Assembly (NCBI RefSeq): GCF_044324785.1
Contig: NZ_CP172127.1
DNA length: 64,000 nt
Strand: one strand, 5' to 3'
Source of the DNA: Escherichia coli
GTDB taxonomy: Bacteria > Pseudomonadota > Gammaproteobacteria > Enterobacterales > Enterobacteriaceae
Shown: positions 2,683 to 57,303 of the stretch, piece after piece
Layout of the letters: every line of letters starts with the position of its first letter
Numbering within the stretch: position 1 is the stretch's first letter
Translations under genes and position numbers: made by a program
The notes under the pieces: model-generated
Seen by the model: only the letters and a program-made list of their open reading frames with translations
What the model was told of the DNA's origin: nothing
Database searches by the model: none

Positions 2683-3849
2683 ATGAAAATAACAATTTCA
2701 GGAACAGGTTATGTTGGTCTTTCAAATGGTATTCTGATTGCGCAAAATCACGAAGTGGTTGCACTGGATATCGTTCAGGCCAAAGTGGACATGCTTAACA
2801 AGAAGCAGTCACCGATTGTTGATAAGGAGATTGAAGAGTATCTGGCGACTAAAGATCTCAATTTCCGCGCTACGACAGATAAGTATGACGCGTATAAAAA
2901 TGCCGATTACGTTATTATTGCCACGCCTACCGATTATGACCCGAAAACAAATTATTTTAATACCTCAAGCGTGGAAGCGGTCATTCGCGATGTGACAGAA
3001 ATTAATCCTAATGCTGTCATGGTGATTAAATCTACAATTCCGGTAGGTTTCACCAAATCAATTAAAGAACGTCTGGGTATCGATAACCTTATTTTCTCTC
3101 CGGAATTTCTCCGTGAAGGTAAAGCCCTTTACGATAATCTCCATCCTTCACGTATTGTCATTGGTGAGCGTTCAGAACGCGCAGAACGTTTTGCTGCGTT
3201 GTTACAGGAAGGGGCGATTAAGCAAAATATCCCGACCCTGTTCACCGATTCAACCGAAGCAGAAGCGATTAAACTTTTCGCTAATACCTATCTGGCGATG
3301 CGCGTAGCATACTTTAATGAACTGGATAGCTATGCAGAAAGTTTAGGTCTGAATACTCGCCAGATTATCGAAGGCGTTTGTCTCGATCCGCGTATTGGCA
3401 ACCATTACAACAATCCGTCGTTTGGTTATGGTGGTTATTGTCTGCCGAAAGATACCAAGCAGTTACTGGCGAACTACCAGTCTGTGCCGAATAACCTGAT
3501 TTCGGCAATTGTCGATGCTAACCGCACACGTAAAGACTTTATTGCCGATGCCATTTTGTCACGCAAACCGCAAGTGGTGGGTATTTATCGTCTGATTATG
3601 AAGAGCGGTTCAGATAACTTCCGTGCGTCTTCCATTCAGGGGATTATGAAGCGTATCAAGGCGAAAGGCGTTGAAGTGATCATCTACGAACCGGTGATGA
3701 AAGAAGACTCATTCTTCAACTCTCGCCTGGAACGTGATCTCGCGACCTTCAAACAACAAGCCGACGTCATTATCTCTAACCGTATGGCAGAAGAGCTTAA
3801 GGATGTGGCAGATAAGGTATACACCCGCGATCTCTTTGGCAGTGACTAA
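2683..3849 (+). CDS. ugd: UDP-glucose 6-dehydrogenase
   Basis: Starts [16 protein letters not shown] (388 aa) at an internal ATG of ORF 2656..3849; Rossmann GxGxxG motif. Confidence 0.95.
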
Positions 3850-27118: not shown

Positions 27119-27194
27119 TGGCTCCTCTGACTGGACTCGAACCAGTGACATACGGATTAACAGTCCGCCGTTCTACCGACTGAACTACAGAGGA
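27119..27194 (-). tRNA. asnV: tRNA-Asn (GUU)
   Basis: Reverse complement is the 76-nt E. coli tRNA-Asn, UCCUCUGUAGUUCAGUCGGUAGAACGGCGGACUGUUAAUCCGUAUGUCACUGGUUCGAGUCCAGUCAGAGGAGCCA. Confidence 0.97.
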
Positions 27195-36880: not shown

Positions 36881-39800
36881 ATGAGCGGAAAACCGGCAGC
36901 ACGTCAGGGCGATGCCACAATGAAAGGTGGCCCGATAGTCCAGGGGTCGGCAGGCGTGAGGATTGGCGCGCCAACCGGCGTGGCCTGTTCAGTGTGCCCC
37001 GGCGGATTCACTTCCGGTAACCCGGTGAATCCGCTGCTCGGTGCAAAAGTACAGCCCGGCGAAACCGATTTCGCGCTGCCCGGCCCGTTACCGTTCGTGC
37101 TCTCCCGCACCTACAGCAGCTACCGGACGAAAACCCCTGCGCCCGTCGGTATCTTCGGTCCTGGCTGGAAAGCACCCTTTGATATCCGCTTACAGATACG
37201 CGATAACGAACTGATACTCAATGATAACGGTGGCAGAAGCATTCATTTTGAGCACCTGTTTCCCGGTGAGGATGGCTTCAGCCGCAGCGAATTATTCTGG
37301 CTGGTGCGCGGCGGCGTGGCGAAACTGAATGAAAGTCACCGTCTTGCCCCACTCTGGCAGGCTCTGCCGGAAGAACTCCGCATGAGTCCGCATATTTATC
37401 TGGCGACGAACAGTCCGCAGGGGCCGTGGTGGATACTCGGCTGGAGTGAGCGGGTACCGGGTGTGGATGAGGTGCTGCCTGCGCCATTGCCGCCGTACCG
37501 GGTGCTGACCGGCCTGGTGGACCGCTTCGGGCGTACCCTGACCTTCCGGCGTGAGGCAGTTGGCGAATTTACCGGGGAAATCACCGGCGTGACCGATGGC
37601 GCAGGCCGTCAGTTCCGCCTGGTGCTGACCACGCAGGCGCAGCGGGCGGAAGAGGCCCAGCAGCAGGCGGTTGCAGCCGGAGCAAAACGACCAGATATCC
37701 CGGTTTCATTGCCGGACTATACAGAATATGGCCGGGATAACGGCATCCGCCTGTCAGCGGTGTGGCTGGCGCATGACCCGGAATACCCGGAGAATTTACC
37801 TGCCGCGCCACTGGTGCGCTACGACTGGACGCCACGCGGTGAACTGGCGGCGGTGTATGACCGCAGCGGTACGCAGATGCGCCACTTTACTTACGATGAT
37901 AAATACCGGGGCCGGATGGTGGCGCACCGTTACGCAGGCAGGCCGGAGATGCGTTACCGCTACGACGACATCGGGCGCGTGACGGAACAACGTAATCCGG
38001 CGGGTTTAAGCTACACCTATCAGTATGAGAAAAACCGCATCATCATCACCGACAGCCTGAACCGGTGCGAGGTGCTGCATACAGAAGGCGAAGCCGGGCT
38101 GAAACGGGTGGTGAAAAAAGAGCACGCTGACGACAGCGTCACACAGAGTCAGTTCGATTCCATTGGCCGCCTTCAGTCACAGACGGATGCGGCAGGCCGG
38201 ACGACAGAATACAGTCCGAATGTGGTGACGGGTCTCGTCACACGCATCACCACGCCGGACGGCAGGAAATCGGAATTTTACTATAACAACCAGAACCAGT
38301 TAACCTCAGCATCCGGGCCTGACGGACTGGAAATGCGCAGGAAATATGATGAGTACGGGCGTCTGACGCAGGAAACCGCTCGCAACGGCGATATCACCCG
38401 CTACAGTTATGATAATCCGCACAGTGAATTACCCTCTGCAACTGAAGATGCGACGGGTAGCCGCAAGCAGATGACGTGGAGCCGTTACGGGCAGTTACTG
38501 ACTTTCACCGACTGCTCAGGCTACCAGACCCGTTATGAATACGACCGCTTTGGTCAGATGACGGCGGTCCACCGTGAGGAAGGTGTCAGTCTTTACCGCA
38601 GCTATGACAGCCGTGGTCAGTTAATCTCGGTGAAAGATACGCAGGGCCGTGAAACGCAGTATGAGTACAACGGTGCAGGCGACCTGACCGCCATTATCAC
38701 GCCAGACGACAACAGAAGCGAGACACAGTACGATGCGTGGGGAAAGGCCGTCAGTACCACGCAGGGCGGGCTGACGCGCAGCATGGAATACGACGTTGCC
38801 GGACGTGTCATCAGCCTGACCAACGAGAACGGCTGTCACAGCGACTTCAGTTACGATGTGCTCGACCGCCTGATACAGCAGAGCGGCTTTGACGGGCGGA
38901 CGCAACGTTACCGTTACGACCTGACCGGGAAACTCACGCAGAACGAGGATGAGGGGCTTGTCACCCTCTGGCACTACGACGAATCGGACCGTATCACACA
39001 CCGCACGGTGAACGGCGAACCGGCAGAGCAGTGGCGGTATAACGACCACGGCTGGCTGAAAGAAATCAGCCACCTGAGCGAAGGTCACCGGGTGGCGGTG
39101 CATTACGGCTATAACCGTAAGGGACGTCTCACCGGCGAGCGCCAGACGGTGCATAACCCGGAGACGGGGGAACTGCTCTGGCTGCATGAGACAAAACACG
39201 CCTACAACGAACAGGGTCTGGCAAACCGCGTCACGCCGGACTGCCTGCCTGCTGTGGAGTGGCTGACCTACGGCAGCGGTTACCTGGCGGGGATGAAGCT
39301 GGGCGACACGCCGCTGCTGGAGTACGCGCGCGACCGCCTGCACAGAGAAACGGTGCGCAGCTTTGGCAGCATGGCAGGCAGTAATGCCGCATACGAACTG
39401 ACCAGCACATACACCCCTGCAGGCCAGTTACAGAGCCAGCACCTGAACAGCCTGGTGTATGACCGTGACTACGGGTGGAATGACAACGGCGACCTGGTGC
39501 GCATCAGCGGCCCGCGACAGACGCGGGAATATGGCTACAGCGCCACGGGCAGGCTGGAGAGTGTGCGCACCCTCGCACCGGACCTGGACATCCGCATCCC
39601 GTATGCCACCGACCCGGCGGGCAACCGGCTGCCGGACCCGGAGCTGCACCCGGACAGTACACTCACGGCGTGGCCGGATAACCGCATCGCCGAAGACGCG
39701 CATTACCTGTACCGTTACGATGAATACGGCAGGCTGACGGAGAAGACGGACCGCATCCCGGCGGGTGTGATACGGACGGACGACGAGCGGACCCACCACT

Positions 39801-41062
39801 ACCACTACGACAGCCAGCACCGTCTGGTGTTCTACACGCGGATACAGCATGGCGAGCCACTGGTCGAGAGCCGCTACCTCTACGACCCGCTGGGACGGCG
39901 AATGGCGAAAAGGGTATGGCGGCGGGAGCGTGACCTGACGGGGTGGATGTCGCTGTCGCGTAAACCGGAGGAGACATGGTACGGGTGGGACGGCGACAGG
40001 CTGACGACGGTGCAGACTGACACCACGCGTATCCAGACGGTGTACCAGCCGGGAAGCTTCACGCCGCTCATCAGAATCGAAACAGACGTGACCGAACTGG
40101 AGAAAGCGCAGCGGCGAAGCCTGGCGGAGAAGTTACAGCAGGAAGGGAGTAAAGATGGTCACGGCGTGGTGTTCCCGCCTGAACTGGTGCGGCTGCTGGA
40201 CAGGCTGGAGGGGGAAATCCGGGCAGACCGTGTGAGTGACGAAAGCCGGGCGTGGCTTGCGCAGTGCGGGCTGACGGTGGAGCGGCTGGCGGCACAGATC
40301 GAGCCAGTTTATTTGCCTGAGCGAAAAATACATCTTTATCACTGCGACCACCGGGGACTGCCGCTGGCGCTTATCAGTACTGAAGGTGCAACGGAATGGC
40401 GTGGGGAGTATGACGAGTGGGGGAATCAGCTTAATGAGGAGAACCCGCATCATCTGTTCCAGCCATACCGCCTGCCGGGGCAGCAGTACGATGATGAATC
40501 GGGGCTGTGCTATAATCGTTATCGTTACTACGAGCCGTTACAAGGGAGGTATATTACACAGGACCCGATTGGGTTAAATGGGGGGTGGAATTTATATAAA
40601 TATCCGCTGAATCCAATAAATTATGCAGATCCTCTTGGCTTAGCCGTAGATATAAACCACTTCCCAGTCAACGAAGACATACGAAATTATGCAGAGAAAG
40701 TTTGGAATAATCCTAATATCATTACAATTGGAACACATGGTGATCCTCAATCAGTATATGATGAAAATTATAATAAGATAGATGTCAAGACATTAGCTAA
40801 TGAGGTTCGAAATCATCCTAAATTTAAACCTGGAATGTCAGTAAGACTGTTATCCTGTAATACAGGAAAAGGAAATAACTCTTTTGCACAGCAATTGGCA
40901 GATGAACTAGGTGTGAGAGTCTATGCTCCTGACCAATATGACTGGTACTATTCAAATGGTAAGGTAGAGCCTTGGGGAGGATTCTATGATGCAAACAATC
41001 AATTGCAAATGGACACGAATCAGCCTGGACATGAGTTTACATTCAAGCGAAGGAAACCATAG
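36881..41062 (+). CDS. Rhs-family polymorphic toxin: N-terminal PAAR-like domain, YD-repeat core, variable C-terminal toxin domain
   Basis: 1393 aa; N-terminus [38 protein letters not shown] (PAAR-like); many YD repeats (..RYRYDDIGR.., ..YEYDRFGQ..); core ends in the PxxxxDPxGL motif ([14 protein letters not shown]); SD AAGGAT upstream. Confidence 0.95.
40643..41059 (+). other. Variable C-terminal toxin domain of the Rhs protein (139 aa, low GC)
   Basis: Sequence after [144 protein letters not shown]. Clear drop in GC relative to the core. Confidence 0.8.
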
Positions 41063-41064
41063 GT

Positions 41065-41667
41065 ATGAGGTATTTTCTCTTTATATTTATAACAATCCCC
41101 CTTATCTCTGGAGGTCATATGAGTAATGATAGCGAAAAGATAATATCAACATATTCGCTCAATTTTTTATCACCAGATGATGTGAGGAAAGAAGAACTTA
41201 AGGCATCACAAGGTGATAGTGATGCTGCATTTAAATTGTACAAATATTACCTTTTTTGCGAGCCAAAATCATACAGAAAACAGCACGAATGGTTAATAAT
41301 ATCGGCAAATAATGGAAATGCTATAGCTCAATATAACTTATCAAGAGAACTTGAGTCAGAAGGAAAAGTAGATGAATCAATACAATGGCTGAAAAAATCA
41401 GCGGAACATGGTAATAATTATGCACAATATCAGATGTCAAAATATTTATTAAAAATAGGTGATATTAGAGGATCGGAATATTATCTAAACTTATCTGCGG
41501 ATAACGGATGTGTATTTGCAATAAAAGATATTATCAAAAATATGATGGATAGTGGAAGGTACGATGACGCCCTCATTTGGGTTGAAAAATTGAAAAAATT
41601 GTATCCTGACACAAATACCGAACTTTACATACAAAAAATAACGCAGAAAAAAAAGCAATCCAAATAA
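41065..41667 (+). CDS. Putative cognate Rhs immunity protein with Sel1-like repeats
   Basis: Starts 2 nt after the rhs stop; AT-rich; Sel1/TPR-like repeats (..GNAIAQYNLSRELESEGKV..SIQWLKKSAEHGNNYAQYQMSKYLL..). An alternative start ATG at 41119 has a strong GGAGG SD. Confidence 0.7.
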   Translation: MRYFLFIFITIPLISGGHMSNDSEKIISTYSLNFLSPDDVRKEELKASQGDSDAAFKLYKYYLFCEPKSYRKQHEWLIISANNGNAIAQYNLSRELESEGKVDESIQWLKKSAEHGNNYAQYQMSKYLLKIGDIRGSEYYLNLSADNGCVFAIKDIIKNMMDSGRYDDALIWVEKLKKLYPDTNTELYIQKITQKKKQSK

Positions 41668-41955
41668 TAATTATATATAATTACTCGCACAGAGTTACAG
41701 TATTGCAAGAAATATATCTAGCATATAAAGTCGCCGCCAGTAAAGATAAAGTACTGTGTAATCCTTCCTCCCATATAGGGGTAAAAACTTAGCATCCAGT
41801 GCCCTCGACTTAATTTTTAGTATTTTCTCTGTGAAGTGACACTTCGTAGGATTCAGTTCATGTTTACCAGAAAAAAGGTGGTCATTCTGGTGGTCTTGAC
41901 AATCTCGATTTTTTGTTTTAGCTTTCCAATCAGCCAATTAATGGCTACGGCGATC

Positions 41956-41975
41956 CCAGTCAGAGGAGCCAAATT
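41956..41975 (+). repeat. Island right-end direct repeat (attR): copy of the tRNA-Asn 3' end
   Basis: ccagtcagaggagccaaatt is identical to the 3' end of asnW plus 4 nt of flank (31412..31431). Confidence 0.8.
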
Positions 41976-42032
41976 TTAGTTTTGAGACATCTCTATGAGT
42001 CTCAAGACAGTTAAAAAATAAAAATTATTTTT

Positions 42033-42067
42033 ACCCGGTTACCTTGTAAAAAGTGACCGGGTTTTTT
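42033..42067 (+). terminator. Rho-independent terminator (probable ancestral asnW terminator, displaced by the island)
   Basis: Hairpin acccggttaccttgtaaaaagtgaccgggt followed by a run of 6 T, just after the attR repeat. Confidence 0.6.
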
Positions 42068-42419
42068 GATTTCTGTGTTTCGTGCGCTTAATCGAGTCTC
42101 ACGCTTCGGTGAGCAAATTGCCCCCCAACAGACATCACGATTCGCAAGGTCAAAAAATTCGTTCCGTGAAGTACCATACAAAGGTATAGAGAAAAATGCC
42201 TTATGCGGGATGTTGCTGTCGCGTTTTTATCGGGAAACTAAACGTAATTGCCACTTTGTCTTCTGTAATCAGAAAAAGAAAACCTGGAATTTTAATAAAT
42301 ATTATTTCTCTGGGGCCGGTATTTTTATAATCAATATGATGGGTTGAATATTATATTTTTTATAGGAATATATGAGATTAAAGAAATCTGCCATAAAGAC
42401 AGATTCCTTTAAAATATAA

Positions 42420-57227: not shown

Positions 57228-57303
57228 TGGCTCCTCTGACTGGACTCGAACCAGTGACATACGGATTAACAGTCCGCCGTTCTACCGACTGAACTACAGA
57301 GGA
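57228..57303 (-). tRNA. asnT: tRNA-Asn (GUU)
   Basis: Fourth identical 76-nt tRNA-Asn copy, between yeeJ and mtfA. Confidence 0.97.

Follow-up and report, generated by a model that had tools for sequence, protein, structure and literature searches.

The rhs locus and its downstream gene

The stretch analysed here, 64,000 nucleotides of an Escherichia coli chromosome (RefSeq assembly GCF_044324785.1, contig NZ_CP172127.1; hereafter the window), exhibits an rhs open reading frame (ORF; 36881-41062, + strand, 1393 amino acids, aa) that ends in a putative toxin tip, and immediately downstream a candidate immunity ORF (41065-41667, + strand, 200 aa). The tested region is 100% identical to strain N3. 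The ATG of the second ORF lies 2 nt 3' of the rhs stop codon (TAG, 41060-41062), on the same strand, and translation from it yields MRYFLFIFITIPLISGGH. A second in-frame ATG at position 41119 gives a protein of 182 aa. The G+C content is 0.55-0.67 in the Rhs core, 0.35-0.38 over the toxin tip and 0.31-0.35 over positions 41000-41750; from the base composition, we estimate that a 200-codon open frame arises in such AT-rich DNA with a chance of about 1e-8. The initial annotation of this DNA, made from the sequence alone, had described the gene as starting 2 nt past the rhs stop, as AT-rich like the toxin tip, and as having one start that gives a hydrophobic N-terminus and another, opening the 182-aa frame, with a far stronger Shine-Dalgarno (SD) sequence. 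All of these observations hold. The features of the two genes are:

36881-40642, + strand: Rhs core, residues 1-1254, with the cleavage motif DPLGL at its end (2592 bits against the NCBIfam equivalog RHS_core)
40643-41062, + strand: Rhs C-terminal toxin tip, residues 1255-1393 and stop codon; small caspase-like (clan CD) putative cysteine protease, nearest to the cysteine protease domains (CPDs)
40736-40738 and 40856-40858, + strand: candidate catalytic residues of the tip, His1286 and Cys1326
41051-41056, + strand: moderate SD AAGGAA of the long-form start (duplex energy -5.7 kcal/mol; AAGGAG in a variant allele)
41065-41667, + strand: long form, 200 aa, putative exported precursor (ORF and translation; cluster P0001)
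41065-41115, + strand: leader, residues 1-17, MRYFLFIFITIPLISGG, signal-peptide-like, followed by His18 at the position of the lipobox cysteine of relatives
41110-41115, + strand: strong internal SD GGAGGT, codons Gly16-Gly17 (-10.0 kcal/mol), with an equivalent SD in 7 other homologues
41119-41667, + strand: short form, 182 aa, Sel1-like repeat protein without the leader (RefSeq coding sequence; cluster P0002)

The RefSeq annotation, produced by the Prokaryotic Genome Annotation Pipeline (PGAP), contains the short form only (WP_001578539.1, listed either as 'tetratricopeptide repeat protein' or as 'sel1 repeat family protein'). Other gene callers are split between the 200-aa form (cluster P0001, 183 member sequences) and the 182-aa form (cluster P0002, 431). 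The predicted duplex between SD and anti-SD is much stronger at the internal start (GGAGGU, -10.0 kcal/mol) than at the first start (AAGGAA, -5.7 kcal/mol); for the 1036 ATGs of the whole window the mean duplex energy is -2.0 kcal/mol, and only 2.1% of them reach -8 kcal/mol or below. Counts of promoters and terminators at the rhs/immunity junction are at the level of shuffled sequences, and the predicted folding of the RNA there does not surpass that of shuffled controls (z = +0.87), so that an internal promoter, a terminator and a hairpin hiding the internal SD all lack support.

The toxin tip and its partner genes

The Rhs protein is a canonical 'RHS element core protein' with DUF6531 at residues 46-123. 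A PAAR domain at its N-terminus was considered and dropped, the Pfam match being weak (independent E-value, i-E = 0.35). Because Pfam supports no bona fide PAAR domain, delivery of the toxin through a type VI secretion system (T6SS) is a presumption. A functional T6SS has been reported in PCN033, one of the strains that carry both the tip and the downstream gene (PMC4882540).

The tip sequence belongs to no Pfam or NCBIfam family and has no solved relative detectable by sequence. It matches neither peptidase C80 nor DUF4347, and its two Pfam matches at E-value ≤10 are unrelated and weak. Eighteen tip homologues share the pattern GxHG...LLSCNTG...FAQxLA...VxAP...W, in which the histidine and the cysteine are invariant. 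The AlphaFold2 (AF2) model of the tip, with a mean predicted local distance difference test (pLDDT) of 93.3, exhibits a caspase-like alpha/beta fold in which the histidine precedes the cysteine, as in clan CD peptidases, the nearest structures being the CPDs of MARTX and TcdA. By the Pfam C80 model, the tip falls outside the peptidase C80 (CPD) family proper. The shared motifs and this model mark the tip as a putative cysteine protease of minimal size and caspase-like type (clan CD), nearest to the CPD domains.

Other loci of this family were identified with a degenerate DNA pattern for SCNTG..FAQ.LA, for which about one match is expected by chance (our own estimate). The pattern occurs at 66 loci in species-representative genomes (L012-L077) and at no fewer than 120 in metagenomes (L085-L204). 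The tip family, widespread and unnamed, is found as a C-terminal domain of polymorphic toxins from Firmicutes, Actinobacteria, Proteobacteria, Planctomycetes and cyanobacteria. The gene located directly downstream of the toxin falls into lineage-specific classes. The first is a leaderless Zn-ribbon protein of about 115 aa, present at at least 113 loci, of which the named ones are mostly from Firmicutes. The second is a distinct protein of about 134 aa in Lentzea (Actinobacteria). The third, in Proteobacteria, is a helical-repeat protein, with homologues of the Sel1-like E. coli protein at about 19 independent loci among the matches listed. The Zn-ribbon protein, with its N-terminal CxxC...CxxC, represents a second, unrelated candidate immunity family. 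Xanthomonadales-type loci (L018, L042, L050, L104, L153, L155, L163, L167 and L183) harbor remote homologues of the helical-repeat protein downstream of the toxin; these are lipoproteins of about 140 aa (hhalign probability 95.9%, E-value = 5.5e-9). The distant relatives were obtained by an exhaustive HMMER search, most of whose 6804 matches are generic long Sel1-repeat proteins; a word-indexed protein search with the immunity protein returned near-identical E. coli copies only.

Within E. coli, tip and downstream gene are found together in 91 of 91 carriers among 5426 complete genomes, with at least 99% identity, always on the chromosome and never apart. The gene lies immediately downstream of a variable tip and in the same orientation, the arrangement expected of a cognate immunity gene, and its co-inheritance with the tip extends from the E. 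coli carriers to the proteobacterial pairs. Neither Pfam nor NCBIfam offers a usable family for its product. The Sel1-like repeats named in the initial annotation are borne out by a significant match to the sequences of solved Sel1-like repeat (SLR) proteins in PDB and by an SLR alpha-solenoid fold.

A single chain, in which a (G4S)6 linker joins the E. coli tip to residues 19-200 of the immunity protein, was modelled by AF2 from an alignment pairing eight natural toxin/partner couples. The resulting model has a pLDDT of 87.3 and a predicted template modelling score (pTM) of 0.80, with disorder in the linker alone. It contains a short beta-strand at immunity residues 26-28, the immunity protein being otherwise all-helical. 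Since a beta-strand requires a strand neighbour and strands are present only in the toxin, the model suggests that the N-terminal motif docks on the toxin sheet. This conserved motif, P-x-S-x-x-S-x-Y-x-L, corresponds to KIISTYSLNFL in E. coli (residues 24-34).

Taking together the pairing, its recurrence in relatives and the fused model, we consider it very probable that the gene confers cognate immunity to the C-terminal toxin of Rhs, a role first proposed from its position and now strongly supported by comparative evidence. The gene could instead encode a Sel1-like partner of the Rhs toxin with another function, such as an adaptor or a chaperone, or be an unrelated gene of the island. In favor of this, Sel1 and tetratricopeptide (TPR) repeats are generic protein-binding scaffolds, and a Klebsiella Sel1-domain protein has been reported to be toxic when over-expressed (PMC12469244). 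Yet the gene directly follows a variable tip in the same orientation, the type of partner changes with lineage (Sel1-like, Zn-ribbon, other) as that of immunity genes does, tandem and multi-module arrays, of a kind common for immunity genes, are found among relatives, and the fused model, as a prediction, is a confident one. Moreover, known T6SS chaperones are encoded upstream and bind N-terminal regions. A role other than immunity is thus highly improbable.

The arrays take several forms. The closest relatives of the E. coli protein, at L078 (1402-2490, P0005) and L081 (2111-3136, P0009), are three-module proteins, and the module also occurs without a leader in genes of its own (L081b, P0044). 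At L081, a leaderless 126-aa paralogue of this module (L081b, 3168-3548) lies immediately 3' of the leader-bearing three-module gene. Judged by the predicted leaders, this single locus would encode an exported and a cytosolic version in two distinct genes. P0040 (L079, 1207-2385), another relative of the immunity protein, is a 392-aa lipoprotein with a toxin-like domain embedded between its Sel1-like repeats. In this domain both the histidine and the cysteine are replaced by serine (GASG for GxHG, LLSSNAG for LLSCNTG). The Rhs tip encoded upstream of P0040 is also variant (AGYG, IACDLG).

The N-terminal leader and the two starts

All of the approximately 19 non-redundant proteobacterial partners exhibit an in-frame N-terminal hydrophobic leader. 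Thirteen of them have a cysteine at the lipobox position (e.g. L078, MTKKFFVLLAVFAIILGGC, and L042, ...LLAAC; also L018 and L050). The other six, namely those of E. coli, L066 (MKIAFICLALLIIMVDSSFGG), L081, L009, L145 and L173, have a signal peptide or anchor without the cysteine. Homologous leaders are found in L078 (with the lipobox ILGGC), L066, L081, L005 and L009. In the alignment with the closest relative, L078, the E. coli segment ISGGH-MSNDSEKIIST matches ILGGC-QMNDEPPVST, so His18 takes the place of the lipidated cysteine. The E. coli sequence, L-I-S-G-G-His18, is therefore no bacterial-lipoprotein lipobox, and the long form would not be a lipoprotein because the cysteine of its relatives is a histidine here.

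The rule for signal peptidase I substrates asks for a positively charged n-region, 7-15 hydrophobic residues and small side chains at -3 and -1. Read by this rule, the leader consists of Arg2, a 12-residue h-region (Y3-I14), a proline at -6, Ser15 at -3 and Gly17 at -1. This layout fits a predicted cleavable Sec signal peptide and is too short for a stable anchor. The suggestion in the initial annotation that the choice of start decides between a membrane-anchored and a cytosolic protein thus needs revision: the start does matter, but the 12-residue stretch does not look like an anchor. The same segment serves relatives as a lipoprotein or secretory signal peptide, so the long form probably reaches the periplasm by export.

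In E. coli, the junction has no indels over 141 nt in any of the 91 carrier genomes. Seventeen of the 91 fall in a 98.6% identity band, of which strain 1190 was the one read. The sole leader polymorphism read, in this strain, is synonymous (Ile11, ATC to ATT, position 41097). The same allele has an A-to-G change at 41055, which turns AAGGAA into AAGGAG, a stronger upstream SD, and Rhs Lys1392 into Arg.

In the E. coli-type clade, eight of the nine genes have a methionine directly after the leader, each preceded by an SD:

E. coli: GGAGGU, -10.0 kcal/mol
L066: GGAGGU, -10.6 kcal/mol
L078: GGAGGU, -10.0 kcal/mol
L081: GGAGG, -9.3 kcal/mol
L112: GAGGU, -7.1 kcal/mol
L005: GAGG, -5.9 kcal/mol
L003: GGAG, -5.6 kcal/mol
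L145: -4.9 kcal/mol

These SDs are encoded by varied codons, specifying Gly-Gly, Met-Glu-Ala, Asn-Gly-Ala or Ala-Arg-Gln. Since such different codons spell the SD, conservation appears to lie at the nucleotide level and not in the residues: an in-frame ATG with a spaced SD is retained apart from the amino acids that it overlaps. Other in-frame methionines mostly lack an SD, the exceptions being those where modules 2 and 3 begin in the three-module relatives. In P0005 and P0009, modules 2 and 3 open with a methionine and an SD-like sequence (-7.2, -5.6 and -4.3 kcal/mol), and by their sequences these proteins look like fused tandem immunity genes.

Were the long form the only one that matters, the true start would be 41065, the RefSeq start would be wrong, the protein would be exported, and the toxin would act in the periplasm or envelope. 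The internal SD and ATG would then be incidental to the Gly-Gly codons of the c-region, small residues of this kind being expected ahead of a cleavage site. This agrees with the universality of the leader in the proteobacterial partners listed (most of them, as seen above, with the lipobox-position cysteine), with the missing post-leader methionine in the Xanthomonadales-type partners, and with a start that adjoins the toxin stop or overlaps with it, an arrangement seen where toxin and immunity genes are coupled. It does not account for the post-leader SDs built from non-glycine codons in L081, L003, L005 and L112, for the recurrence of the same synonymous GGA GGT in three genes only about 30-35% identical as proteins, or for the methionine and SD kept at the module boundaries of the multi-module relatives. 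We regard this reading as improbable.

The initial annotation presented the two starts as alternatives. Both starts are real, but their exclusivity is doubtful: relatives conserve the leader as well as the internal SD and ATG, and the starts may therefore be no alternatives at all, with both in use. The scheme that we infer, which extends to neutralisation by binding, to a long form that is exported and cleaved, to the use of both starts, to delivery by T6SS, and to the compartment and substrate of the toxin, is as follows. The ATG at 41065, through translation coupled to the end of rhs, would give a 200-aa precursor whose 17-residue leader would send it through Sec to the periplasm. The strong GGAGGU would drive production of a leaderless 182-aa cytosolic form from the ATG at 41119. 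In either form, the Sel1-like alpha-helical repeat protein would bind and block the toxin with its N-terminal motif KIISTYSLNFLS, located just after Met19, and its first repeats, so that the two forms between them would counter the toxin on either side of the inner membrane. From the sequence data, we assign a probability of roughly 0.5 to this full reading of an immunity gene for a caspase-like toxin with two products acting in two compartments. Regarding its parts, the short form is very likely made; the long form is rather likely to be made and exported; for the production of both forms, the chances look about even. Whether two conserved starts giving two-compartment protection are a conserved trait of the Sel1-like immunity family associated with CPD-type toxins in Proteobacteria is a more tentative matter, which we would put slightly under an even chance.

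Several points weigh against this two-product reading. The Pfam Sel1 model (PF08238) is not significant for the immunity protein (best i-E = 0.7), nor are the models of the TPR clan (all i-E ≥0.13), and the pTM of a linker fusion is an indirect measure of binding. Xanthomonadales-type partners have no post-leader methionine. In one of these genes (L153), an internal SD and ATG at Met37 (-10.7 kcal/mol) occur by chance. The homologues compared are non-independent samples, so that a probability combined over them comes out too high. The 17-aa leader, devoid of the lipobox cysteine of its relatives, could be a decaying relic. The Cupriavidus homologue (L003) retains an in-frame leader with only distant upstream ATGs and none nearby, a case which shows that loss of the leader can occur. 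As the start of the Cupriavidus gene, an ATG that overlaps the toxin stop was considered and rejected, being out of frame. Finally, the leaderless Zn-ribbon partners in Firmicutes argue for a cytoplasmic target, which makes an exported immunity form puzzling. As to the compartment of the toxin, the universal leaders of the proteobacterial partners point to the periplasm, and the leaderless partners of Gram-positive bacteria to the cytoplasm.

Some of these points converge on the main rival explanation, that only the cytosolic 182-aa protein is made, the 54 nt upstream of it being the relic of an ancestral lipoprotein signal that has lost its cysteine and is neither translated nor functional any more, and that the toxin acts in the cytoplasm. 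Besides the Cupriavidus leader remnant, the His18 substitution and the cytosolic Zn-ribbon partners, it draws support from the much stronger internal SD, from PGAP and the majority of gene calls choosing 41119, and from the existence of the leaderless modules L081b and P0044. On the other side, the leader frame is open from an ATG only 2 nt past the rhs stop and has its own SD, a complete n/h/c signal-peptide layout is retained, the lone leader polymorphism read is synonymous in an allele that also improves the upstream SD, and all other proteobacterial partners among those listed have intact leaders. We regard the production of the short form alone as possible but unlikely, and retain the reading with two products.

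Known systems and the surrounding island

Rhs toxins paired with immunity proteins are already known, and so are immunity proteins of the Sel1-like type. The latter are exemplified by Pseudomonas aeruginosa PA5086/PA5087/PA5088 (Tli5b), which give immunity to the T6SS effector PldB. The toxin of that system is a phospholipase D, whereas the present one is a putative protease borne by Rhs, and apart from the type of repeat there is no detectable specific sequence relationship between Tli5b and the protein described here. To our knowledge, no dual start has been described for PA5086/PA5087/PA5088. The CPDs of MARTX RtxA and of Clostridioides difficile TcdA/TcdB (peptidase C80) are internal domains of 210-250 aa that perform self-processing upon activation by inositol hexakisphosphate (InsP6). 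In contrast, the tip is terminal, measures 139 aa and is paired with an immunity gene.

[quoted passage not shown] Unlike the present tip, they are Hcp-loaded, lack an immunity gene and appear to be anti-eukaryotic. Zhang et al. (2012) described Tox-Caspase, caspase-fold domains with His and Cys at the C-terminus of polymorphic toxins including Rhs, as predicted toxins (PMC3482391). The immunity families listed for Tox-Caspase are Imm36 and Imm57, whereas the partners found here are Sel1-like or Zn-ribbon proteins. The Cpe1-Cpi1 pair, in which a papain-like cysteine protease toxin delivered by T6SS or contact-dependent inhibition (CDI) is neutralised through direct binding by a small cognate protein (PMC12136450), resembles the present pair in combining a cysteine protease toxin with a small cognate immunity protein. 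It differs by the papain-like (C39-like) fold with a Cys-His-Asp triad, by the cytoplasmic targets GyrB and ParE, and by a repeat-free cytosolic immunity protein. Compartment-specific immunity on both sides of the membrane has been reported for Staphylococcus aureus EsxX, with ExiAB and ExiCD (PMC12744356). [quoted passage not shown]

A literature search found no study of this tip or of this immunity protein, and the pair formed by a caspase-like CPD-type protease toxin and a Sel1-like partner appears uncharacterised in the searchable literature. If correct, our reading would provide a function for a protein labelled only 'tetratricopeptide repeat protein' in RefSeq. It would also define a so far uncharacterised toxin-immunity family, in which a minimal CPD-type protease on Rhs and other polymorphic toxins of Proteobacteria, Firmicutes and Actinobacteria is accompanied by lineage-specific immunity types. 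The choice of start decides where the toxin is neutralised, hence where it acts. Should both starts be used, compartment-specific immunity would arise from a single gene, having so far been shown only for separate proteins (EsxX/ExiAB/ExiCD). On our reading, the start that RefSeq gives for this family may also conceal an isoform that is exported. The conserved leader combined with an internal start is an unusual and testable feature, and the substrate of the toxin could point to an essential target not seen before for interbacterial proteases.

The rhs and immunity genes reside in a 10.5-kb island at a tRNA-Asn gene, together with two frameshifted integrase pseudogenes. The landmarks of the 3' end of the immunity gene and of the island are:

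31412-31431, + strand: left 20-bp direct repeat, the 3' end of tRNA-Asn (31352-31427), CCAGTCAGAGGAGCCAAATT; exact repeat, adjoined by the integrase pseudogenes
41647-41654, + strand: A8 homopolymer near the 3' end of the immunity gene, a likely site of frameshift variants with altered C-termini
41956-41975, + strand: right 20-bp direct repeat, the end of the island, about 290 bp past the immunity gene

A 224-aa variant (P0003) departs from the gene at the A8 run and is apparently frameshifted, as is a 204-aa variant with an altered C-terminus in a metagenome (L175). A truncated 76-aa form (L115) has its frameshift at a place other than the A8 run. With positions 40500-42100 as the query, DNA towards the right is common to 5420 of the 5426 E. 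coli genomes. A 47-codon ORF (41836-41979) encoding a hydrophobic peptide (MFTRKKVVILVVLTISIFCF...) spans the right repeat of the island, carries no RefSeq annotation and is probably no gene. In strain USDA-ARS-USMARC-49610, a truncated Rhs, annotated by PGAP as 'DUF8616 domain-containing protein', adjoins cbl and forms a different junction. In E. coli, tRNA-Asn sites are known as hot spots of integration. The window contains four tRNA-Asn genes (27119-27194, 29528-29603, 31352-31427 and 57228-57303), and the island occupies only the third of them.

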